Positions 3,708-54,306 of a DNA stretch of 60,579 bases are shown here, one piece after another. A model generated the notes under the pieces. It saw only the letters and a program-made list of their open reading frames with translations. It was not told the origin of the DNA and did no database searches. Both the position numbers and the translations under genes were made by a program. Source of the DNA: an uncultured Bacilli bacterium (GTDB taxonomy: Bacteria; Bacillota_I; Bacilli_A; RF39; UBA660); assembly GCA_947631295.1 (NCBI GenBank), contig CANRKU010000005.1, positions 1-60,579 on the forward strand, in the 5' to 3' direction. Within the stretch, counting starts at the first letter, position 1. Each line of letters opens with the position of its first letter.

Positions 3708-4836
3708 TACTATCACTCTTTCCTATTCTGCTATCTCCATGAACTACAATATCCATATATTTTTGATAATAAGAATTATAATTAGGTAAAATTTCCTCAG
3801 TCAATTGATGAAAAGGATAAACCTTATAATTTCCACGATATCCTTTTTGATAATCACTATAGGTATATGTTAACTCACTATTAATATTTTGTAAAGAAAC
3901 ATCTCCTGTTTTTATATCTTTCACAACATCTAAACTAACCATTAAACCAATTAATTTCTCCAATCGATCCTGACCAGATAAAAAATTACCTAAAGAATAA
4001 ATAACCAAAGTATCATCAATAAATTCAATAGGCTGTACCACATGAGGATGATGTCCAATAATAATATCTACACCCAAACTAGCTAAATAATTAGCTATTT
4101 CTCTTTGTGTAGAATCAGGGGTATAGGTGTATTCCTCTCCAAAATGCATAGATACTAAAAGTAAATCTACTTGATTTCTAACTTTTTCAATATCCTGCCT
4201 TACTATCTCTTCATCATAACGATTTAATAAATAGGTTTTTCCATCTGGGATACGGAGTCCATTAGTCCAATAAGTATAGGATAAAAGTGCATATGTAATA
4301 CCATTTTTCTCTTTTATGATAATTTGATTTCTATCTTCATCAGAAGCATAAGAACCTGCTGTATAAACATCTTTATTTTCCCAATAATGAATAGAATTTA
4401 AAATAGCTGATTCCCCTCTATCCAAAGTATGATTATTAGCTAAAGATACTAAATTAAATCCAGCATCTAAAAAAGCATCACCTACTTCGTAAGGAGAATT
4501 AAATCTTGGATAAGAAGAAAGCCCTAATTCTACCCCTCCTAAAATAGATTCTTGATTATAAAAAGCTAAATCATCAGATGAAATAATAGGTTTTACTTTT
4601 TCTAACATAGGTTTAAAATTATAACCATTCTCTGTTTTAGCATCCATATATACAGATTCATGAATTAAACCATCTCCTACCATAATAAGAGATAACTTTT
4701 TTTCTGTTTCCATCACACTTTCCGCATTTTCATCTTTATGACTAGTTTCTTTATTAGAATAATTAGAAAATATGAAAAAAAACAAAAAAAGAGTAATAAG
4801 AACAATAAACGAATTCCTAAATACTACTTTTTTCAT
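3691..4836 (-). CDS. CapA/PGA_cap family metallophosphoesterase, membrane-anchored
   Basis: N-terminal TM; VGD, NQES, LANNHTLD, HFGEEY, GHHPHV, YSLGNF motifs. Confidence 0.9.
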   Translation of the reverse strand: MKKVVFRNSFIVLITLFLFFFIFSNYSNKETSHKDENAESVMETEKKLSLIMVGDGLIHESVYMDAKTENGYNFKPMLEKVKPIISSDDLAFYNQESILGGVELGLSSYPRFNSPYEVGDAFLDAGFNLVSLANNHTLDRGESAILNSIHYWENKDVYTAGSYASDEDRNQIIIKEKNGITYALLSYTYWTNGLRIPDGKTYLLNRYDEEIVRQDIEKVRNQVDLLLVSMHFGEEYTYTPDSTQREIANYLASLGVDIIIGHHPHVVQPIEFIDDTLVIYSLGNFLSGQDRLEKLIGLMVSLDVVKDIKTGDVSLQNINSELTYTYSDYQKGYRGNYKVYPFHQLTEEILPNYNSYYQKYMDIVVHGDSRIGKSDSNGNIE

Positions 4837-42070: not shown

Positions 42071-45000
42071 TTAATTTGATGAAATTAAGGTAATTTTAGC
42101 ATAGCCATTACCTAAATGTTGACCAGATACGGTACCTGCAGAAGATAAAGAACTGCTAATATATCCAGAACCGCCGCCACCGCTATGGCCATCCCATTTA
42201 CACCAAGCAGCACCACCGTACCAGCCACCACCGGCACCACCATTACCCCATTCTTCAGCACTACCACCTTGTCCGAATGATCCATTAAAGTTTCCACCAC
42301 ATGCAGAAACTCCTCCACTAGATTGGCCTCCACCTGTAGGATCTAAATGATTTTCATGTGGTTTAGTACATACATCATTATCAACCTCGTCAACTTCATA
42401 GCAGCTAGCATAATTACCATTTCCACCAGTAGTTCCACCACCAGCTCCACCAGGGCCATGAGGTGAACCACCGCCACCACCACCAGCAACGATTAATACC
42501 TCACCAGAGGTTGATGCATAATTTGCTAAAACACCTCGGTTAGTAGTGGCAATATGGGTTGCTCCACCGCCACCACCAGATGCAGTACCATCTGATTCTT
42601 CAGTAGAACGATGTCCTGGAAAGCCACCGCCGTTATAGCTATATTTTTTAGCTTCTTCCAATAACCAACCATTCCAAGTTCCAGCCCATGTTGCACTAAT
42701 ACCTTGTTGTCCTACAACAACATATAGTCTACTATCACGTGTTAGATTAACTTGTCCATAAGAATAACCACCTAAGCCACCATCTGAACCACCAGAACCA
42801 CCTTGAGCACCATAAACCTCAAGTTGATAAACTCCATTACATGGAACAATAAATTCATCTGCTTGACCTTTATAATTAAATTCCCATATATGACCATTCT
42901 CAAAGCCACATAAACTAATTGTATAATTGTAATTACTATTTCCTGACCAAGTTCCTGCACCATTCTTTGCTCTTGCTCTAATTGTCCATGACCCAGCTTG
43001 ATTTAATTGTATTGTAACACTACTAGATGTATAATTACTACTTCCACTTTGTCTTACTCCATTTAATGTTACTTCATAATCTAGAGCTTGTACTCCACTA
43101 TCTGCATCAGTTCCTGTAATAGTTACACTCAAAGTTTGATTATATGAGCCCGCTGATACATTTGTTGACACACTTGGGCCACTCTTATCTACATATACAT
43201 TTGCTGTTCTAGCTGGACAAGTCCTACTATTTCCTGCATTATCTTTGATAGTATAAGCTGCTATCGTTGTTGTACTTGTAGTAGTATTAAATGTTACGCT
43301 TCCTCCACTATTACCAGTACTACATCCACTTCCATCATCGCTACATCCATAATAAATCGTTCTATTTCCACTTGTCCATGCTGTCGAATCTCCACTGTTT
43401 GTACAATCTGGTTGTTTTTTATCTACTTTTACTGTGATATCACATGCTCCTGCATTTCCTGCTTCATCTATTACTGTTCCGGTTACTGTATAAGTTCCAT
43501 TTGCATTGATATTTTGCTTATCAATAACTTGACTCTTTATATTCGTTCCTGTTCCATCAGTTGTATTAAATCCTATCGTTACATCACTTGTATACCAACC
43601 ATTACTTCCTGAAGTCCCTTTTGTTACTTTTAAACTACAACTTGGCGCTTTGGTATCTATTGTATAATTTCTACTTTCACTTACATTTCTTCCTGATTCA
43701 TCATATGCTGTTGCTGTTACCTCCCATTTTCCATGCGTTAAATTATAACTTTTACTTTTTTCTTTGATATTATTATCATTATTGACTACTGCTCCATTAT
43801 TGGTTGTTTTTATATTCATATAACTATAATACGTATCACTCGCTGTTATTACGATACTTTTATTTGCATTATAAATTCCATTTCCTAAATTATAAGTTAC
43901 CGTTGGATTGGTCTTATCTACATTTACTGTTGTAGAACACTCTGTCTTATTCCCTGCTTCATCTATTACTGTTCCTGTTATCTTCTTATTTTTACTATCA
44001 CTTGTTACTTTTGGTGAATCTATCTTTGATTCTTTGATTCCACTTACTTTATCTTCTTTACTCTTAAATTCTATTGTTGCATCACTTGTATACCATCCAC
44101 TATTTCCATTCGTTCCACTACTTTTTAGTTCACATGTTGGATATTCTTTATCTATTTTTAACTGATATGTATTAGATTCGCTTCTATTTCCACTCTTATC
44201 TACACTTCTTACATAATAATTTTGTACTCCATTATTACTACTTATATGATAATTACTCTCTAACTTAGTATAATTTCTTCCATCTGTACTAATTTCATAA
44301 TAATCAATATCGCTTCCTAGAATTCCATTTTTTCCATAATCTGTTGACTGATATTCTTCATATATATCTCCACTATACCAATTCCCATTATATAAATTCC
44401 CTTTCGCATTATCTTTTCTCAATACTACCTGTGGTATAGTTGGTACTACATCATCTATTACCTCTACTATGATACTTTTCCTTGCTCCTTGATATACATA
44501 GGTAATTTCTACTTCTCCTAATCGATTCGTATCTATCTTCTTTGGATTTCCCTCTACTTTATCACTTACTAAACTCTCTACTCCATTCAATGTATAATAC
44601 GCTTTTGCATATGGTACTTTAAAATCTTCTCCTTGTTTTACTGTATATCGATCTTTCTCTACCTCTAGTCGATAATTCTTACTATCTGCAGTTACATTAT
44701 TATCTTCTGTATAATTACATGCTTCTCCTTCTGTTTCGTAGTTTTCACATATTAAGCAAGTATAATATTCATATTCTTTATTTTCATTCTTTCTAGCAAT
44801 TACTCTTCCGCTACAACTATTCCCATCTTCATCTACTACTTCATCTATATATTTATTAGTAACTAATTCTTCTAATGGAATTACTGTTACATTTTCAACT
44901 TCTTCTGGTAATAATTGCTTATAATCATCCAAGTAATCTCTTCCAGATAACATTACCGTTTTCTCTAAATCACTATAATATTCTTTTGTTCCTCTTATTA

Positions 45001-45100
45001 AATATCCATAAATTCCTGGTATCGCTATCAATAATAAAATTCCTATAATCGTTATTACTGTTATGATTTCTATTAAAGTAAACCCTTTTTTATTTTTCAT
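42071..45100 (-). CDS. Type IV prepilin-like large adhesin, copy 1 (Ig-like stalk plus glycine-rich tip)
   Basis: KKG|FTLIEII class III signal; repeated VDK..P..D.AGN Ig-like units; Y.LEVYGAQGG..GGGGATHI..IVAGGGGG..GNGYAKIT domain. Confidence 0.9.
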   Translation of the reverse strand: MKNKKGFTLIEIITVITIIGILLLIAIPGIYGYLIRGTKEYYSDLEKTVMLSGRDYLDDYKQLLPEEVENVTVIPLEELVTNKYIDEVVDEDGNSCSGRVIARKNENKEYEYYTCLICENYETEGEACNYTEDNNVTADSKNYRLEVEKDRYTVKQGEDFKVPYAKAYYTLNGVESLVSDKVEGNPKKIDTNRLGEVEITYVYQGARKSIIVEVIDDVVPTIPQVVLRKDNAKGNLYNGNWYSGDIYEEYQSTDYGKNGILGSDIDYYEISTDGRNYTKLESNYHISSNNGVQNYYVRSVDKSGNRSESNTYQLKIDKEYPTCELKSSGTNGNSGWYTSDATIEFKSKEDKVSGIKESKIDSPKVTSDSKNKKITGTVIDEAGNKTECSTTVNVDKTNPTVTYNLGNGIYNANKSIVITASDTYYSYMNIKTTNNGAVVNNDNNIKEKSKSYNLTHGKWEVTATAYDESGRNVSESRNYTIDTKAPSCSLKVTKGTSGSNGWYTSDVTIGFNTTDGTGTNIKSQVIDKQNINANGTYTVTGTVIDEAGNAGACDITVKVDKKQPDCTNSGDSTAWTSGNRTIYYGCSDDGSGCSTGNSGGSVTFNTTTSTTTIAAYTIKDNAGNSRTCPARTANVYVDKSGPSVSTNVSAGSYNQTLSVTITGTDADSGVQALDYEVTLNGVRQSGSSNYTSSSVTIQLNQAGSWTIRARAKNGAGTWSGNSNYNYTISLCGFENGHIWEFNYKGQADEFIVPCNGVYQLEVYGAQGGSGGSDGGLGGYSYGQVNLTRDSRLYVVVGQQGISATWAGTWNGWLLEEAKKYSYNGGGFPGHRSTEESDGTASGGGGGATHIATTNRGVLANYASTSGEVLIVAGGGGGGSPHGPGGAGGGTTGGNGNYASCYEVDEVDNDVCTKPHENHLDPTGGGQSSGGVSACGGNFNGSFGQGGSAEEWGNGGAGGGWYGGAAWCKWDGHSGGGGSGYISSSLSSAGTVSGQHLGNGYAKITLISSN

Positions 45101-45431
45101 CCATTATCACACCTATCTTTGATTATCATAAATTTTTTCCTAATATTTTAACTGATAAACTAATGTCTAACCCTATCCTACTATGTACTAAGTATAACAT
45201 ATTACTAAAAAAAATAAAAGAAACATTTTGTCTCTTTTAGCAAAGTGTATACAAATTATAATTTTCAAACCAAAAATTTTCCTAAATAATGTTTAATTCG
45301 ACATTTAATAATTTTTACTAATTTTCCCTTCACTTTTATAATTATCATAGAAATAGAAAAAGTAGACGAAAGTTTTCACTTTGTCTACTTTTATCATATC
45401 ATTTTAAAATTAGCTCTACCCTTAAGTCTAA

Positions 45432-48400
45432 TTAATTTGATGAAATTAAAGTAATTTTTGCATAACCGTTACCAACGTGCGTTGATGTACTAGTTTGAGA
45501 TGTATATAATATACCATTGCATGTTAAACTTGCACTACATCCTCCAATATATCCGGATCCACCGCCGCCAGCACCTTGTTGATTATTTCCACCGCCATAC
45601 CAGCCGCCACCGCCGCCTCCGGCATATGCCTTTGCGCCAGTAGTGCCACTAGCAGGATCTTCGGCTCTACCAAATGGACCCCATCCATGCGTCCAGTCAC
45701 CATCATGTACATATGGATATTGGCGACCACCCCAACCGCCGCCATATCCAACAACAACGTTAGGATCAATATTCTCATTTCCATCTCCACCAACTAGTCC
45801 TCCACCAGAACCACCATGAAGATCAAGAGGTACTCGTAAATCAGGATCATCATTATCACATATTTCTTGAGTACCACCACCGCCACCACCGGCTACAATC
45901 AACACCTCAGAAGTATAGTTTTCATAATTATATAATTCACCACGATTAGGACCCATCGTTATACTAGTACAACCACCACCTGATCCGCCACCAGAAGGCC
46001 CTCCATTTCCTCCGCCATTATATCCTCCTATAGTATAATAGCCTTCTACATCACGACCATCATGATCTTGTCCAATTCCACCAACCCCAATATTTAAGGT
46101 TTGATCTTTATTTAAGTAAACGTATCCTATTGAATAACCACCAGTTCCGCCTGTCCCAATCTTTTCTTTTTTCCAAGTATATAGATTTCCACCAGATGCA
46201 CCATATACTTCTAGTTGATAGTATCCACTACATAGTACTGAAAAAGTTTGTATGCCTCCAGTATAATTAAATTCCCATGAATAACCATTCGGAAAACCAC
46301 ATAAACTAATCGTATAATTGTAATCACTATATCCTGACCAAGTTCCTGCACCATTCTTTGCTCTTGCTCTAATTGTCCATACACCTGCTTGACTTAATGG
46401 TATTGTAACACTACTAGATGTATAATTATTATTTACACTTTGTCTTACTCCATTTAATTTTACTTCATAATCTAGAGCTTGTACTCCACTATCTGCATCA
46501 GCTCCAGTAATAGTTACATTCAAAGCCTCACTATATGTTCCTTGTTCAATATTACTTGATACACTTGGGCCACTCTTATCTACATATACATTTGCTGTTC
46601 TAGCTGGACAAGTCCTACTATTTCCTGCATTATCTTTAATTGTATAAGCTGCTATCGCTGCTGTCCTTGTAGTGGTACTAAATGTTGCACTTCCTCCACT
46701 ATTACCAGCACTACATCCACTTTCATTTGCTCCATCACTGCATCCATAATAAATCGTTCTATTTCCACTTGTCCATGTTGCCGAATCTCCACTGTTTGTA
46801 CAACTTGGACTATTTTTATCTACTTTTACGGTTAAACTACATGTTCCTACATTTCCTGCTTCATCTATTACTGTTCCTTTTACTGTATAAGTTCCATTTG
46901 TAGTAATACTTGGTGTATTAATTACTGAACCTGTACTTACTATATTGGTTCCTGTTCCATCAGTTGTATTAAATCCTATCGTTACATTGCTTTTATACCA
47001 ACTATTGCTTCCTAAAGTCCCACTTGTTACCTTTAAACTACAAGTTGGATTTTGAGTATCTATTTTATAGCTTCTAATTTCACTCACATTTCTTCCTGAT
47101 TCATCATATGCTGTTGCTGTTACCTCCCATGTTCCATGTGTTAAATTATAACTTTTACTTTTTTCTTTGATATTATTATCATTATTGACTACTTGTCCAT
47201 TATTGGTTGTTTTTATATTCATATAACTATAATACGTATCACTTGCTGTTATTACGATATTTTTATTTGCATTATAAATTCCATTTCCTAAATTATAAGT
47301 TACCGTTGGATTGGTCTTATCTACATTTACTGTTGTAGAACACTCTGTCTTATTCCCTGCTTCATCTATTACTGTTCCTGTTATCTTCTTATTTTTACTA
47401 TCACTTGTTACTTTTGGTGAATCTATCTTTGATTCTTTGATTCCACTTACTTTATCTTCTTTACTCTTAAATTCTATTGTTGCATCACTTGTATACCATC
47501 CACTATTTCCATTCGTTCCACTACTTTTTAGTTCACATGTTGGATATTCTTTATCTATTTTTAACTGATATGTATTAGATTCGCTTCTATTTCCACTCTT
47601 ATCTACACTTCTTACATAATAATTTTGTACTCCATTATTACTACTTATATGATAATTACTCTCTAACTTAGTATAATTTCTTCCATCTGTACTAATTTCA
47701 TAATAATCAATATCGCTTCCTAGAATTCCATTTTTTCCATAATCTGTTGACTGATATTCTTCATATATATCTCCACTATACCAATTCCCATTATATAAAT
47801 TCCCTTTCGCATTATCTTTTCTCAATACTACCTGTGGTATAGTTGGTACTACATCATCTATTACCTCTACTATGATACTTTTCCTTGCTCCTTGATATAC
47901 ATAGGTAATTTCTACTTCTCCTAATCGATTCGTATCTATCTTCTTTGGATTTCCCTCTACTTTATCACTTACTAAACTCTCTACTCCATTCAATGTATAA
48001 TACGCTTTTGCATATGGTACTTTAAAATCTTCTCCTTGTTTTACTGTATATCGATCTTTCTCTACCTCTAGTCGATAATTCTTACTATCTGCAGTTACAT
48101 TATTATCTTCTGTATAATTGCATGCTTCTCCTTCTGTTTCGTAGTTTTCACATATTAAACAAGTGTAATATTCATATTTTTTATTTTCTATTCTTTTTGC
48201 TACTACTCTTCCGCTACAACTATTCCCATTTTCATCTACTATTTCATCTATATATTTATTATTAACTAATTCTTCTAATGAAATTACTGTTACATTTTCT
48301 ATCTCCTGTGGCAATAATTGTTTATAATCATCCAAGTAATCTCTTCCAGATAGCATTACTGTTTTCTCTAAATTACTATAATATTCTTTTGTTCCTCTTA

Positions 48401-48503
48401 TTAAATATCCATAAATTCCTGGTATCGCTATCAATAATAAAATTCCTATAATCGTTATTACTGTTATGATTTCTATTAAAGTAAACCCTTTTTTATTTTT
48501 CAT
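45432..48503 (-). CDS. Type IV prepilin-like large adhesin, copy 2
   Basis: Same architecture, offset +3403 from copy 1; different tip sequence. Confidence 0.9.
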   Translation of the reverse strand: MKNKKGFTLIEIITVITIIGILLLIAIPGIYGYLIRGTKEYYSNLEKTVMLSGRDYLDDYKQLLPQEIENVTVISLEELVNNKYIDEIVDENGNSCSGRVVAKRIENKKYEYYTCLICENYETEGEACNYTEDNNVTADSKNYRLEVEKDRYTVKQGEDFKVPYAKAYYTLNGVESLVSDKVEGNPKKIDTNRLGEVEITYVYQGARKSIIVEVIDDVVPTIPQVVLRKDNAKGNLYNGNWYSGDIYEEYQSTDYGKNGILGSDIDYYEISTDGRNYTKLESNYHISSNNGVQNYYVRSVDKSGNRSESNTYQLKIDKEYPTCELKSSGTNGNSGWYTSDATIEFKSKEDKVSGIKESKIDSPKVTSDSKNKKITGTVIDEAGNKTECSTTVNVDKTNPTVTYNLGNGIYNANKNIVITASDTYYSYMNIKTTNNGQVVNNDNNIKEKSKSYNLTHGTWEVTATAYDESGRNVSEIRSYKIDTQNPTCSLKVTSGTLGSNSWYKSNVTIGFNTTDGTGTNIVSTGSVINTPSITTNGTYTVKGTVIDEAGNVGTCSLTVKVDKNSPSCTNSGDSATWTSGNRTIYYGCSDGANESGCSAGNSGGSATFSTTTRTAAIAAYTIKDNAGNSRTCPARTANVYVDKSGPSVSSNIEQGTYSEALNVTITGADADSGVQALDYEVKLNGVRQSVNNNYTSSSVTIPLSQAGVWTIRARAKNGAGTWSGYSDYNYTISLCGFPNGYSWEFNYTGGIQTFSVLCSGYYQLEVYGASGGNLYTWKKEKIGTGGTGGYSIGYVYLNKDQTLNIGVGGIGQDHDGRDVEGYYTIGGYNGGGNGGPSGGGSGGGCTSITMGPNRGELYNYENYTSEVLIVAGGGGGGTQEICDNDDPDLRVPLDLHGGSGGGLVGGDGNENIDPNVVVGYGGGWGGRQYPYVHDGDWTHGWGPFGRAEDPASGTTGAKAYAGGGGGGWYGGGNNQQGAGGGGSGYIGGCSASLTCNGILYTSQTSTSTHVGNGYAKITLISSN

Positions 48504-49129
48504 CCATTACCACACCTATCTTTTATTATCATAATTTTTTTCCTAATTTTTTAATTAACAAACTAACACTTAACCCTATCCTACTATGCACTAAGTATAA
48601 CATACTACTTAAAAATTTAAAAGAAACATTGAATTTGAGTTTCAGTTTTTTACGAAAAAATTGAATACATTTTAATCTTAAATAAAATTTTTAAAATATT
48701 TTTGGCAAATGTCTGATAAAATGCCATTTTCCCCTTCCCCATATCAATATAGAACATTCGAAAATGATCTTTTTCTATGATTAAATTAAACATCTTTTAT
48801 AGCTTCAATACTAATTGCTTATATTTCTCTCTCTTTTCTCTTTTATTAAACTCTTCTAAAATTTCTCTTTCGTATTTTTTGTTTAGTACTATTTTTAGTT
48901 AATTAAATTTTGCTAGATTGTGAAAGTTTTTTCCTTATTTTTGCATCAACAAAATGAAATTGTTTTATCCACAGATTCATTTTTTTTCTTTGTTTTTTAT
49001 TTTCATCAAAACTCAAAAACAATTAGATGTTCCCTTGCTATTATTTTAATTAATTTACATGAAACTTTTAAACATATAAAACCCGTTTCTTCTTCAATAG
49101 CGGGCTTTATATCCATTTGTATTCAGTTA

Positions 49130-52100
49130 TTAATCAATACTAACTAAAGTAATTTTGGCTTTTCCATTTCCATTATTCATTCCTGCTTGACTAAAAGTAT
49201 TATTAGCATTATACCCTGTATTAAAATAATTAGAACCACCCTCAGATCCATAACCAGGATTAGCAGTATAAAATGAAGTTAAAAGTATGCCTGAATTTTT
49301 ACCACCATTATTTACAGCTAAATCTCCTGTAGAAAATTTAAGATATAACTTTACTGCTACTTTATTCAGATACGGAGGAACCGTATAAATAATACTTAAA
49401 TCATAATCATTATGCATTGGAGTAGAATCACCATGATTGGATATACTATATCGACCATTTTCCCTTGCCTGTCTAGCAGTCTCTTTTGCTAAAACATTTC
49501 CGTTAGCATCTACTAATTCGATAGAAGTTTGATCTTCATCTATTGGAGTAAATTCAGGATGACTATCATAAAAATTGGTATCAATATATTTATTAGCAGC
49601 ATCTGCAAATGCAGTAATTTTAATATATGGAGAATTAGAAATCGTAAAGTAACCAGTAAATATAGTCAACCAACCATTAGGACTAATCTGTCTATATCCA
49701 TATAAATTGTTGAAATTTTCTACATAACCATCGTCATCACCGCCACTATAATCTACATAACCACTATCATCTCTAGTAGAATTAATAATCCAATTATTTT
49801 TATTTGTTTTATCAGGATTAATACCATTATCTATTGAATACTTGTAACTTCCATCTTGATTTTGAACTGGCGAATAAAGAATCAGTGGGTCCTTCATAAT
49901 CATAGTGGAACCATTGCTTCCATTTTGATAGCCTCCTCCGCCACCGCCATTTTCTTGTGTCGAAGATTTAGAGGTAGTTGAATTTCCTCCTGGTAATCCA
50001 TCATAATCTGCATTGGCTCCTCCGCCACCAGCTGCAACCAGTAAAATGGAAGATGCACCATTTCTAACAAGTTGTACTACTGTACTTGCACCTCCACCTG
50101 CGCCTTCAGAATTACTATTATTTCCTTGATAGCCATAGCCATTAGTTCCACCAGCAGTTCCATTTCCCATTCCACCTGGATAAATCTGTAAGAGATCATT
50201 TCTAGTAAAGCTATATCTAGAATTTACTGTTCCACCAAATCCACCTATATGTTGTAAAAAGCTTCCCCCTTGGGCACCAGATGCTTCTATTTGATAAACA
50301 CCATTACATGGTATCGAGAAATTTTGGAGTCCACTTCCATAATTAAATTCCCATGTTTGTCCTACAGGAAAACTACATAAATTAATCGTATAAGTATAAC
50401 TAGTATAATTTGACCATATTCCTGCTTGATTTTTAGTTCTTACTTTAATAATCCAAGTTCCTGATTGATTAAGTTGTACTGCTAAGCTATTAGATGTATA
50501 ATTATTATTTCCGTTTTGTTTTATTCCATTTAATGTTAATTCGTAATCCATAATTTCTATTCCACTATCTGGATCTGTTGCGGTTATCGTTACATTCTTA
50601 CTCTCTGTATAGGTCCCCTGTGTTACATTAGTTGATAATGTTGGTCCATTTTTATCCACTTTTACTGTTAAATTACATGCTCCTGCATTTCCGGCTTCAT
50701 CTATTACTGTTCCTTTTACTGTATAAGTTCCATTTGCATTGATATTTGGTGTATTAATAACTTGACTCTTTATATTCGTTCCTGTTCCATCAGTTGTATT
50801 AAATCCTATCGTTACATCACTTGTATACCAACCATTACTTCCTGAAGTCCCTTTTGTTACTTTTAAACTACAACTTGGCGCTTTGGTATCTATTGTATAA
50901 TTTCTACTTTCACTTACATTTCTTCCTGATTCATCATATGCTGTTGCTGTTACCTCCCATTTTCCATGCGTTAAATTATAACTTTTACTTTTTTCTTTGA
51001 TATTATTATCATTATTGACTACTGCTCCATTATTGGTTGTTTTTATATTCATATAACTATAATACGTATCACTCGCTGTTATTACGATACTTTTATTTGC
51101 ATTATAAATTCCATTTCCTAAATTATAAGTTACCGTTGGATTGGTCTTATCTACATTTACTGTTGTAGAACACTCTGTCTTATTCCCTGCTTCATCTATT
51201 ACTGTTCCTGTTATCTTCTTATTTTTACTATCACTTGTTACTTTTGGTGAATCTATCTTTGATTCTTTGATTCCACTTACTTTATCTTCTTTACTCTTAA
51301 ATTCTATTGTTGCATCACTTGTATACCATCCACTATTTCCATTCGTTCCACTACTTTTTAGTTCACATGTTGGATATTCTTTATCTATTTTTAACTGATA
51401 TGTATTAGATTCGCTTCTATTTCCACTCTTATCTACACTTCTTACATAATAATTTTGTACTCCATTATTACTACTTATATGATAATTACTCTCTAACTTA
51501 GTATAATTTCTTCCATCTGTACTAATTTCATAATAATCAATATCGCTTCCTAGAATTCCATTTTTTCCATAATCTGTTGACTGATATTCTTCATATATAT
51601 CTCCACTATACCAATTCCCATTATATAAATTCCCTTTCGCATTATCTTTTCTCAATACTACCTGTGGTATAGTTGGTACTACATCATCTATTACCTCTAC
51701 TATGATACTTTTCCTTGCTCCTTGATATACATAGGTAATTTCTACTTCTCCTAATCGATTCGTATCTATCTTCTTTGGATTTCCCTCTACTTTATCACTT
51801 ACTAAACTCTCTACTCCATTCAATGTATAATACGCTTTTGCATATGGTACTTTAAAATCTTCTCCTTGTTTTACTGTATATCGATCTTTCTCTACCTCTA
51901 GTCGATAATTCTTACTATCTGCAGTTACATTATTATCTTCTGTATAATTACATGCTTCTCCTTCTGTTTCGTAGTTTTCACATATTAAGCAAGTATAATA
52001 TTCATATTCTTTATTTTCATTCTTTCTAGCAATTACTCTTCCGCTACAACTATTCCCATCTTCATCTACTACTTCATCTATATATTTATTAGTAACTAAT

Positions 52101-52333
52101 TCTTCTAATGGAATTACTGTTACATTTTCAACTTCTTCTGGTAATAATTGCTTATAATCATCCAAGTAATCTCTTCCAGATAACATTACCGTTTTCTCTA
52201 AATCACTATAATATTCTTTTGTTCCTCTTATTAAATATCCATAAATTTCTGGTATCGCTATCAATAATAAAATTCCTATAATCGTTATTACTGCAATGAT
52301 TTCTATTAAAGTAAACCCTTTTTTATTTTTCAT
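49130..52333 (-). CDS. Type IV prepilin-like large adhesin, copy 3
   Basis: Offset +7233 from copy 1; lacks the Cys-rich module; tip carries a ~200-aa insertion. Confidence 0.9.
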   Translation of the reverse strand: MKNKKGFTLIEIIAVITIIGILLLIAIPEIYGYLIRGTKEYYSDLEKTVMLSGRDYLDDYKQLLPEEVENVTVIPLEELVTNKYIDEVVDEDGNSCSGRVIARKNENKEYEYYTCLICENYETEGEACNYTEDNNVTADSKNYRLEVEKDRYTVKQGEDFKVPYAKAYYTLNGVESLVSDKVEGNPKKIDTNRLGEVEITYVYQGARKSIIVEVIDDVVPTIPQVVLRKDNAKGNLYNGNWYSGDIYEEYQSTDYGKNGILGSDIDYYEISTDGRNYTKLESNYHISSNNGVQNYYVRSVDKSGNRSESNTYQLKIDKEYPTCELKSSGTNGNSGWYTSDATIEFKSKEDKVSGIKESKIDSPKVTSDSKNKKITGTVIDEAGNKTECSTTVNVDKTNPTVTYNLGNGIYNANKSIVITASDTYYSYMNIKTTNNGAVVNNDNNIKEKSKSYNLTHGKWEVTATAYDESGRNVSESRNYTIDTKAPSCSLKVTKGTSGSNGWYTSDVTIGFNTTDGTGTNIKSQVINTPNINANGTYTVKGTVIDEAGNAGACNLTVKVDKNGPTLSTNVTQGTYTESKNVTITATDPDSGIEIMDYELTLNGIKQNGNNNYTSNSLAVQLNQSGTWIIKVRTKNQAGIWSNYTSYTYTINLCSFPVGQTWEFNYGSGLQNFSIPCNGVYQIEASGAQGGSFLQHIGGFGGTVNSRYSFTRNDLLQIYPGGMGNGTAGGTNGYGYQGNNSNSEGAGGGASTVVQLVRNGASSILLVAAGGGGANADYDGLPGGNSTTSKSSTQENGGGGGGYQNGSNGSTMIMKDPLILYSPVQNQDGSYKYSIDNGINPDKTNKNNWIINSTRDDSGYVDYSGGDDDGYVENFNNLYGYRQISPNGWLTIFTGYFTISNSPYIKITAFADAANKYIDTNFYDSHPEFTPIDEDQTSIELVDANGNVLAKETARQARENGRYSISNHGDSTPMHNDYDLSIIYTVPPYLNKVAVKLYLKFSTGDLAVNNGGKNSGILLTSFYTANPGYGSEGGSNYFNTGYNANNTFSQAGMNNGNGKAKITLVSID

Positions 52334-52353
52334 CTATTACCACACCTATCTTT

Positions 52354-52517
52354 TTTATATACTTAGATACTTTTTTAAAAAATAAATTATCTTTAAAATA
52401 TAAGAAAAACTCTTAATTACACATTAGTATTTTTTTCAATTCTCTAACAATATTATATCTTTTTTTCATTTATTTTCAAGCAAACTTTTCTTCCTATAAA
52501 GTATCTAAGTATATAAA
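52354..52517. promoter_or_regulatory. Candidate invertible promoter: perfect 20-bp IR enclosing a minus-strand TTGAAA-N16-TATAAT
   Basis: TTTATATACTTAGATACTTT (52354..52373) and AAAGTATCTAAGTATATAAA (52498..52517); promoter at 52452..52479. Confidence 0.65.
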
Positions 52518-52614
52518 TTAAAAACGTTCAAGCAGAAAACAATTGTTTATACTAGAAGAATACGATAATTTTCTTAACAATAAAACTTAGAATATCTTTT
52601 TAATTTTAATGTAT

Positions 52615-52656
52615 ATAAAAAAGTACCTAAATAAAATTTATTTAGATACTTTTTTT
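52615..52656 (-). terminator. Intrinsic terminator of the transporter gene
   Basis: aaaaagtacctaaata...tatttagatactttttt. Confidence 0.75.
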
Positions 52657-52674
52657 AATTAATCTTCAATATTC

Positions 52675-54306
52675 TTAAATTAGAAATACAACGAAGAATA
52701 TAATAACAAGTACAACTAATAATTCTAAGAATAATTTCCAAATATGTTTTAACCATTGTCCATAAGAAACATCTAAATATGTTAACGTACCAAGTAAGAT
52801 TGCACTAGTTGGAGCAACTAACATCATTAATCCATAAACAGATTGGAAAATAACACCAATAAGTGGATATAATGTAGTATCTTGAACAACAGAAGTAACA
52901 TAAGGTAGTGTACTTTGTGCTACATAAATATTTTCTACATTGAAAATACTAGATATCATAGTAACAAGTGTCATGGTAATTACGTTAAAATCTTTTGTGA
53001 AATCCAAGAAAAATTTAGTAATATTTAATTGGAATGGATTATAAGTTACTATAATTAATACTAAATAAGTAAGTAGCATATAAATTGCTGGTTTTAAAGC
53101 CTTTTTTACACCTTGTTCAATTGCATCTAAAAATTCATCAAATTTTAATCCATAAATAAATGCTAAGAAACAAGATGATAAAATAATAAGTGCAGGCATT
53201 TCATAATTTAATGACCAACTTCCAAATGAATTAACTTGTCCTAATAGTTTAGCAAATATTGGAAAACCACTAATTTCAAAATCTTGAACAGCTTTCAAAG
53301 CATCACTAAACCATTTTATTTCTAATACACCTTCCCAATCAAATGTAGCAAGTGCTAAAAGAACAACAACTAAGTCAAAAACAAGGATAAATGGCCAAGT
53401 CTTTGCTTTCTTTTTTGGTTTAACAGTTACTTTAGTTTCTGTTTTTGATTTTAAATCAAATGCTCTTGTTTTAGTTGTAGATTTACTAGAAGATTTAGTA
53501 GAATATTTAGTAGATTTCTTAGAATTTGTTTTTGTAGAACTAGAGTTTTTCTTCTTTGAATCTTTTTTACTAGAATCTTTTGCTTTAGTTTCTACTTTTT
53601 CTTTGGTATCTTTTTCTTCTTTCACAACTACTTTTTCTTCTTTCTTTCCACTATTAACACTAATAGGTACAAATTCTAACACTTTATCTGTAGTATTTCT
53701 TGTTTTTTTAGCATACTGTAAAACATTAAATATTAGTACCACTAAACCAATTACTAGTAAAATAATTTTTGTAATTATTTCACTATATACATCTGTTCCT
53801 AGTACTGCATTAATATAATATGTAGTGTTAGAACCAAGTGTAGTTCCTAAAATTCCAACAATAGTAGAACCAACTGTTACACTTGCTGCAACTAACTTAT
53901 TATATCCCATTAATAAAATAACGGATATAATGAATGGAAATACGAATAAAATTCCAAAAGATAAACCTGTAACTGAAACAATAACTGCTGTTAAAATCAT
54001 AATTAATGACAAGAAAATAGCTTCTTTACCATCAAATAATTTTACGATTTTATCTAGAAGTACACGATAAGCTGGAATCTTATAAGCAACTCCATAGAAT
54101 ATACCAGTAGCAAGAACTATTAAAACTACATATGGAAAATAACGAAATAATTCAACTGCATAAGAAAATAAATCGAATATTCCAAGTTGATTTCTAGCAT
54201 CAACTACTAATTCTGCTTGATAAGAAGCTGATGGAAAAATCCAAGTACATAATGCTACTACTAGTATAGATAGTAAAACTACCTTTAAAATATTATGTTT
54301 CTTCAT
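52675..54306 (-). CDS. Multi-pass membrane protein, YfcC/DcuC-like transporter with a Lys/Ser-rich loop
   Basis: About 12 TM segments; TWIFP, LVAPTSAILLGTL..VSYGQWLK C-terminal motif. Confidence 0.7.
   Translation of the reverse strand: MKKHNILKVVLLSILVVALCTWIFPSASYQAELVVDARNQLGIFDLFSYAVELFRYFPYVVLIVLATGIFYGVAYKIPAYRVLLDKIVKLFDGKEAIFLSLIMILTAVIVSVTGLSFGILFVFPFIISVILLMGYNKLVAASVTVGSTIVGILGTTLGSNTTYYINAVLGTDVYSEIITKIILLVIGLVVLIFNVLQYAKKTRNTTDKVLEFVPISVNSGKKEEKVVVKEEKDTKEKVETKAKDSSKKDSKKKNSSSTKTNSKKSTKYSTKSSSKSTTKTRAFDLKSKTETKVTVKPKKKAKTWPFILVFDLVVVLLALATFDWEGVLEIKWFSDALKAVQDFEISGFPIFAKLLGQVNSFGSWSLNYEMPALIILSSCFLAFIYGLKFDEFLDAIEQGVKKALKPAIYMLLTYLVLIIVTYNPFQLNITKFFLDFTKDFNVITMTLVTMISSIFNVENIYVAQSTLPYVTSVVQDTTLYPLIGVIFQSVYGLMMLVAPTSAILLGTLTYLDVSYGQWLKHIWKLFLELLVVLVIIFFVVFLI

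Follow-up and report, generated by a model that had tools for sequence, protein, structure and literature searches.

A probable promoter-inversion switch in front of a giant type IV pilin-like adhesin gene of an uncultured rabbit-gut Bacilli bacterium

Known inversion switches and the pilin-adhesin locus

Promoter inversion as such is well known. In Escherichia coli, the gene of the major fimbrial subunit is immediately preceded by fimS, an invertible promoter that sets piliation to ON or OFF. The fimS element has short repeats, is adjoined by two dedicated tyrosine recombinase genes and controls a chaperone-usher pilus. According to the available portions of PMC7446863 and PMC9286219, the flgB flagellar switch, cwpV, cmrRST and pdcB of C. 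difficile are short invertible segments worked by RecV; the flagellar switch is 154 bp long, and its recombinase, the gene of which lies elsewhere, acts on several switches (PMC7446863). In Mycoplasma penetrans, the accessible parts of PMC2268961 and PMC10502178 describe mpl (P35), with one invertible promoter per surface-lipoprotein gene, and the former proposes Xer-like tyrosine recombinases as the invertases. The same part of PMC2268961 describes dispersed surface loci of Bacteroides, the promoters of which are inverted by the global invertases Mpi and Tsr; the Mfa1 fimbriae of Phocaeicola are a further case. In Ureaplasma parvum, surface-antigen loci are inverted by XerC, which binds to short inverted repeats (mba/UU172; available part of PMC3599477). 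Among the matches listed in a non-exhaustive literature search, no title dealt with promoter inversion immediately in front of a type IV pilin gene.

The window, that is the whole stretch of 60,579 nucleotides that was analysed, belongs to a genome (G000) of 1.10 Mb with 27.6% G+C, assembled in 48 contigs and 92% complete. It contains an array of three pilin-adhesin genes, and the gene designated copy 3 is preceded by a cassette of 164 bases, in which two perfectly complementary 20-mers enclose 124 bp (Table 1). We propose that this cassette is, in all probability, a promoter-inversion phase switch of copy 3 that was assembled in the ON orientation.

Table 1. Features of the pilin-adhesin locus (positions in the window) and cassettes of the second family in the same genome (positions on the contig named)
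Feature	Position	Strand	Remark
Pilin-adhesin copy 1	42071..45100	-	upstream region homologous to that of copy 2; no inverted repeat
Pilin-adhesin copy 2	45432..48503	-	own fixed promoter-like site; no inverted repeat
Pilin-adhesin copy 3, 1067 aa	49130..52333	-	gene behind the cassette; prepilin N-terminal methylation motif, Ig-like domain, glycine-rich domain
Ribosome-binding site (RBS) AGGTGTGG of copy 3	52340..52347	-	
Gene-proximal arm of the 20-bp inverted repeat	52354..52373	no strand	end 20 nt ahead of the ATG
Putative invertible core, 124 bp	52374..52497	no strand	contains the promoter-like site
-10 hexamer TATAAT	52452..52457	-	TATAAT in 3 of 4 cassettes, TATAAA in one
A7 run inside the 16-nt spacer	52460..52466	-	
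-35 hexamer TTGAAA	52474..52479	-	11/12 together with the -10 hexamer
Gene-distal arm of the 20-bp inverted repeat	52498..52517	no strand	presumed recombination site
Hairpin after the upstream transporter gene	52617..52655	no strand	arms resemble the inverted repeat; U-runs on both sides
DcuC-like transporter gene	52675..54306	-	upstream, outside the switch
Family F on C7	26215-26373; 30159-30316		
Family F on C13 and C11	C13:11058-11221; C11:14250-14406		
Family F on C18 and C22	C18:4112-4270; C22:13826-13984		
Family F on C27 and C29	C27:6325-6485; C29:160-317		
Family F on C1, C21 and C3	C1:312-469; C21:2139-2296; C3:2529-2685		
Family F on C15	C15:21631-21749		partial copy

Like fimS, the pilin cassette would directly drive a gene of the pilus-subunit type; unlike fimS, it has no recombinase gene nearby, and its target is type IV pilin-like and not of the chaperone-usher type. 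With the C. difficile switches it has in common a short segment flanked by inverted repeats before surface or motility genes of a low-GC Gram-positive organism (available part of PMC7446863). It differs from the flagellar switch of C. difficile in carrying the promoter inside, which the same part of PMC7446863 presents as the canonical mechanism. Further differences from C. difficile are the perfect 20-mer arms, the target, which is a type IV pilin-like giant adhesin, and the fact that no RecV-like enzyme was found. M. penetrans mpl, as far as the sources available on it extend, is similar in that a small low-GC genome has dispersed surface genes, each with a short invertible element; the pilin cassette differs in being single-copy with its own repeat sequence, and there is no sequence relation between the two. 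Bacteroides belongs to another phylum and its loci have a common consensus repeat, whereas the repeat of the pilin cassette is unique in its genome; moreover, G000 has no small serine invertase. The inversions of Ureaplasma swap coding parts or genes, whereas the pilin cassette would flip a promoter.

All three adhesin copies are type IV pilin-like, each having a prepilin methylation motif, Ig-like domains and a glycine-rich domain. The N_methyl match in copy 3 reaches 31.6 bits against a cut-off of 21.2, and TIGR02532 matches too. G000 further encodes a prepilin peptidase (Peptidase_A24, C8:1513-1842), three T2SSE ATPases and eight N_methyl genes. By its motif, together with the peptidase and the ATPases, copy 3 qualifies as type IV pilin-like; assembly into a pilus is a prediction. 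The first ~580 residues of the three copies are 91-100% identical and the last ~450 are divergent, which suggests adhesins with a common stalk and exchangeable tips. The three genes form 1.7-kb direct repeats that could permit recombination between the copies.

Copies 1 and 2 have upstream regions that are homologous to each other, lack an inverted repeat and contain a promoter-like site TTTAAA-N16-TATACT with TG preceding the -10 hexamer (48621-48594 for copy 2). The homology of the region upstream of copy 3 with copies 1 and 2 begins at 52358 and 52353, respectively, which is the outer edge of the proximal arm; the earlier note had placed the end of the homology at this arm, and the boundaries agree with it. 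The RBS of copy 2 is identical to that of copy 3 (AGGTGTGG), and copy 1 has AGGTGTGA. On the other side of the cassette lies the DcuC-like transporter gene. At the transporter loci of relatives, an unrelated terminator is followed directly by a clpC-like gene in 8 of 12 cases, a gene on the opposite strand comes next in 3 of 12, and one contig is too short to tell. In the window the clpC-like gene is found beyond the pilin array. Because the transporter gene and the clpC-like gene adjoin each other at 8 of the 12 loci, the 10.6-kb pilin array (42071-52674) is regarded as a species-specific insertion.

The perfect 20-bp inverted repeat round 124 bp, which had been described from the sequence before, is exact at the positions of Table 1, and its left arm is indeed close to the RBS, from which 6 nt separate it. 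The arms extend imperfectly into an inverted repeat of 56 nt at 79%. In ten first-order Markov simulations of 1.1 Mb each, not a single perfect inverted repeat of 18 or 20 nt with a spacer of 30-300 nt was obtained; the real genome has 35 (18-nt) and 14 (20-nt) such seeds. The 20-bp inverted repeat is thus far beyond chance. The cassette is single-copy in the genome and has no target-site duplication. The idea that the same repeat might precede other surface genes of the genome did not hold, as the 20-mer has exactly two exact matches genome-wide, namely the two arms. Two further arm-like sites with 2-3 mismatches were rejected as chance matches, their number being equal to that of the reversed-pattern control; one near-match, on C8, falls within a pilin coding region. 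The longest inverted repeats of G000 are located elsewhere, at C10:12907-13527, where a stretch of ~600 bp contains five copies of a perfect palindrome of 18-23 bp and also a second palindrome.

On the strand of the gene (minus), the distal arm is followed by 18 nt, TTGAAA, the 16-nt spacer with its A7 run, TATAAT, 78 nt, the proximal arm, 6 nt and the RBS; the ATG of copy 3 is at 52333. The promoter-like site TTGAAA-N16-TATAAT points at copy 3, as had been claimed, scores 11/12 against a sigma-70-like consensus and ranks first among the 82 promoter-like sites of the 13.5 kb between 41500 and 55000. The total of 82 is not above shuffles (mean 80.8), so that the consensus match by itself proves little and weight is given to its rank and its conservation in relatives alone. 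Between the hairpin and the distal arm, the gene strand has no promoter-like site of at least 9/12. The labels ON and OFF used here rest on this consensus-predicted promoter.

The 7-nt homopolymer reported in the promoter spacer is present as well (52460-52466). The associated proposal, that one slip of the A7 run would tune the spacer to the optimal 17, received no support: no length variant was listed at this position for the contigs of four sequencing runs, and the homologous cassettes of relatives have 17-nt spacers without a long homopolymer run.

The hairpin behind the transporter gene resembles the arms by 87-89% over 17-23 nt, in agreement with the similarity stated in the earlier note. 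Either strand gives a good fold (z -4.83 and z -3.02), and the hairpin is probably a bidirectional terminator, which would also halt OFF-oriented transcripts. In two relatives, G010 and G024, a repeat-like third copy is found at the same outer flank, where it abuts the cassette.

We infer the following mechanism, in which the activity of the promoter, the frequent and reversible switching in a single strain, the identity of the recombinase and the role of the terminator are predictions. A recombinase encoded elsewhere in the genome would pair both 20-bp arms and flip the 124-bp core. In the assembled orientation (ON), TTGAAA-N16-TATAAT would fire towards copy 3, giving an mRNA whose leader of ~110 nt is unstructured and contains both the proximal arm and the RBS. 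In the flipped orientation (OFF), the promoter would fire towards the end of the transporter gene, copy 3 would be promoterless, and the transcript would be halted at the repeat-like hairpin. Copies 1 and 2 would retain their fixed promoters, so that only one of the three adhesin variants would be switched.

Homologous cassettes and contigs of the source sample

A 501-bp query round the cassette was compared with 41 genomes. Full-length homologs with 70-72% identity were obtained at three places, G010 contig 75, G010 contig 68 and G024 contig 12, which belong to two other species of the same genus. A pattern of the arm core and its spacing occurs in 3 of the 29 genomes of the genus (G000, G010 twice and G024) and its reversed control in none; so narrow a distribution weighs against the switch reading. 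In the collection of species-representative prokaryote genomes, a degenerate pattern for the class returned only the three known loci; the metagenome contig collection gave no match to this pattern, and a 26-nt pattern of arm plus flank had no match in either the metagenome contig collection or the genome contig collection. The genomes of the relatives are metagenome bins, and each of their three cassettes is located within ~140-430 nt of a contig end.

The arms are perfect within each cassette, though they differ between species. The change from GATAC to GACAC in the arm core of G024 occurs in both arms. A 12-nt arm core, ACTTAGAyACTT, which carries ACTTAGATACTT, is invariant across the four homologous cassettes; the other conserved blocks are TAGGAAGAAAAG and the -35 and -10 hexamers. 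Read from the cassette sequences, TTGAAA is found in all four cassettes from three species; in the alignment it is shifted by one column in G000, hence there is no invariant column block. None of the four cassette copies has a target-site duplication. Each genome has one cassette, except for G010 with two, and always together with the pilin leader or gene. The neighbours of the cassettes in the relatives are murG-murB-ftsQ, miaB-like and ylbF-like genes, and a flippase gene; no recombinase gene was found beside them. The pilin genes of G009 and G003 are preceded by ordinary promoters, and no inverted repeats are present before them.

The two cassettes of G010 have opposite orientations. On contig 75, a flank X is followed by the cassette with its promoter towards the gene, a leader Y of ~140 nt and the pilin start (MKKKGFTLAELL). 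Contig 68 has the same flanks X (~95 nt) and Y with the cassette in reverse between them; when one of the two cassettes is inverted, they match with 93.9% identity over 165 nt. Since the ~95 nt of flank X are all that the two contigs have in common on that side, these are paralogous loci and not one locus assembled twice. The inverted copy lies at exactly the same boundaries between homologous flanks, which indicates inversion in place and not re-insertion. In G024 the arrangement relative to leader Y is that of contig 68; the contig stops 139 nt further on, and the gene is outside the view.

On G010 contig 68, the pilin gene that follows the OFF-oriented cassette lacks an in-frame start (~3940-3960). 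In comparison with contig 75 (2432-2460), one base is absent before the ATG, and the run of A behind it is A7 and not A8. Slipped-strand variation as a second OFF state could account for this start defect, as could a pseudogene or an error of assembly.

Six sequencing runs contain part of the window, none of which is on record as RNA. Four of them (X1-X4) derive from one rabbit-gut sample (S1) and contain 0.87-0.90 of the words of the window; X5 and X6, with shares of 0.12 and 0.09, carry none of the results. S1 is possibly the sample from which the genome itself was assembled, so X1-X4 are not independent of it. They were examined as Logan contigs (k = 31), which give no orientation ratio. 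X1 and X2 have one contig each that spans 52305-53600, solely in the reference orientation. The contigs of X3 and X4 (52344-52517, 52488-53600, 52305-52383, 52354-52527 and 52498-53600) end at 52344, 52354, 52383, 52488, 52498, 52517 and 52527, which are the edges of the arms or these edges +/-10 nt. The 20-nt repeat is shorter than k-1 and cannot alone make the graph branch; branches exactly at the repeat +/-10 nt are as expected of both core orientations in a k = 31 graph. In X4, a loose end of 10 letters before 52498 is the reverse complement of 52374-52383, which is the predicted inverted junction. This single 10-letter record from one of the four runs of one sample is direct but thin support for inversion, and two co-existing strains with fixed opposite orientations would give the same contig picture.

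X1 and X2 also have one contig each that matches from 52461 on, inside the T7/A7 run, and begins with 113-255 unrelated letters that are absent from the G000 genome. These contigs may come from a variant cassette of another strain or be assembly chimeras.

The proposal of a phase switch captured in the ON orientation, made in the earlier note, is thus backed by both orientations in G010, by the co-changing arms, and by the branching in X3 and X4 with the junction in X4. The same data bear on the possibility that the promoter is now fixed between relic inverted repeats, having been inverted in the past with no switching left within a clone. This would fit the fact that both orientations were seen only between paralogs or species, apart from a minority junction in one metagenome sample, where a mixture of strains would look the same, and it would fit the failure to find an invertase (see below). 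The arms argue against it: their 20-mers have remained perfect, and their symmetry is kept from species to species although the interior has drifted to 70-72%, which requires that selection or exchange continues. The two junction types at one locus in one sample also speak against a relic, which we regard as unlikely.

The two orientations could also have arisen as independent insertions of a MITE-like element with terminal inverted repeats and an outward promoter. The terminal repeats and the size of ~160 bp are those of such an element, the cassettes occupy different chromosomal places in the relatives (at murG-murB-ftsQ, miaB-ylbF and the flippase gene), and the contigs of the relatives stop near them. 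Nevertheless, this origin is highly improbable, given four copies without any target-site duplication, a copy number of one per genome (two in G010) with constant linkage to the pilin leader or gene, the identical boundaries of the inverted G010 copy between homologous flanks, and the lack of an IS110/Piv-type transposase in G000.

Recombinase candidates

The contig of the window contains no recombinase gene, in line with the earlier statement that no invertase is present in the window. A recombinase acting in trans, as was then supposed, would be part of the proposed switch. The G000 assembly encodes three tyrosine recombinases, which are XerD (G000:C1:86488-87402; 346 bits against a cut-off of 329.6) and two integrases adjoining tRNA genes, and five large serine recombinases, one of which is split across two contig ends. 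Neither a dedicated invertase nor a small serine invertase was found in this 92%-complete assembly, and the recombinases that it encodes are all likely to have other jobs.

A Piv/IS110-type invertase was discarded as the agent, as PF01548 gave no match and PF02371 a single one below the cut-off. The extra small tyrosine recombinases of G010, G024 and G044 were likewise rejected; they are located in a phage-like gene row or beside a transposase-like ORF and have no counterpart in G000. A second, XerC-like Xer paralog is present in 24 of the 29 genomes of the genus and was not found in the G000 assembly. It is also missing from G019, which by the pattern used is the only other genome with cassettes of the second family described below. 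The missing paralog may be due to incompleteness (G000 92%, G019 87%) or to real loss.

With no dedicated invertase in the assembly, a real inversion might be brought about by general homologous recombination between the 20-bp repeats, as a rare and unregulated event. A length of 20 bp is very short for RecA-dependent exchange. In addition, the 12-nt arm core is invariant in three species while the rest drifts, a pattern that points to a protein recognition site, and the assembly is 92% complete. General recombination is therefore a very poor candidate.

That the arms act instead as RNA, through a long-range stem or as a terminator or attenuator akin to the hairpin, and regulate copy 3 without DNA rearrangement, is hardly credible: the arm sequence is similar to the neighbouring hairpin and a symmetric arm change would preserve an RNA stem as well, but the sole strong promoter lies between the arms, so that the transcript carries only one of them, a terminator separates the upstream gene from the distal arm, the predicted 5' UTR of the ON transcript folds like shuffles (z 0.17), no Rfam family matches 52200-52800 at E up to 1, and neither the flipped interior between the same flanks nor the inverted junction would be accounted for. 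The RNA-structure role that had been offered as an alternative is thus not sustained by the promoter position, the leader or Rfam.

A second cassette family and the meaning of the switch

The scan of G000 for perfect inverted repeats revealed a second, unrelated family of cassettes (family F). A profile built from 8 of its copies matches 12 copies in G000 and does not match the pilin cassette; the family is also present in G019. A copy measures ~158 bp, has arms of 15-20 bp and a hairpin with a T-run, and is located directly before the RBS of a surface-protein gene. The size class is that of the pilin cassette, and the existence of such a family in the genome counts among the points in favour of the switch. 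The products of these genes have a common N-terminal anchor and varied C-terminal domains (Laminin_G_3, glycine-rich domain). A fixed promoter close to the consensus is found ~45 nt upstream of the cassette in 10 of the 11 full copies; its sequence is TTGACT-N17-TATAAT in the majority of them and differs slightly in the others. Judged from its sequence, the layout resembles one in which the promoter is fixed and a terminator can be inverted. The pilin cassette does not fit the cwpV-type layout of an outside fixed promoter and an invertible terminator, whereas family F does. Family F is multi-copy, and its fixed promoter outside the cassette distinguishes it from M. penetrans mpl.

The T-run side faces the gene in 8 full copies and is reversed in 3; the partial copy on C15 has the same profile sense as the 8. 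The 3 reversed copies belong to one gene subfamily. As orientation thus tracks gene subfamily, it does not demonstrate active switching, and a role of family F as an RNA leader is compatible with these data.

Two further observations concern this family. The extended -10 TGTTATACT followed by GTAGGATAG, which is found upstream of pilin copies 1 and 2 (48560-48625 and 45160-45225), recurs upstream of one family-F cassette, just upstream of 26373 on C7. The motif thus appears to be a promoter-leader motif common to two unrelated surface-gene families. On C42, a perfect 20-bp inverted repeat (1360-1379 / 2861-2880) has arms like those of family F that are 1.48 kb apart, one of them at the contig end; it may delimit a larger invertible segment or belong to two neighbouring cassettes.

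Taken together, the two families suggest that a tenth of a percent of the genome, comprising the pilin cassette and the 12-member family, is devoted to surface control by DNA inversion. As a tentative and rather improbable extension, the genome might contain 13 or more inversion cassettes that fall into two unrelated classes of repeat and are served by the housekeeping XerD-type recombinase or an unrecognised enzyme as global invertase, with the third repeat copy as a working part. If this is true, the repeat-like terminator, which is kept at the outer flank in all three species, would insulate the neighbour gene and perhaps join in the recombination. XerC of Ureaplasma is a precedent for Xer-type inversion in a reduced low-GC genome, and by analogy XerD might have such a role here. 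The identity of the enzyme would tell whether a housekeeping Xer recombinase is reused as in Ureaplasma, so far as the available part of PMC3599477 describes it.

Here, the known principle of promoter inversion is very probably encountered in a giant type IV pilin-like adhesin of an uncultured rabbit-gut Bacilli bacterium. The proposed switch would extend promoter inversion to an uncultured, genome-reduced gut lineage and would provide a testable handle on variation in its attachment.
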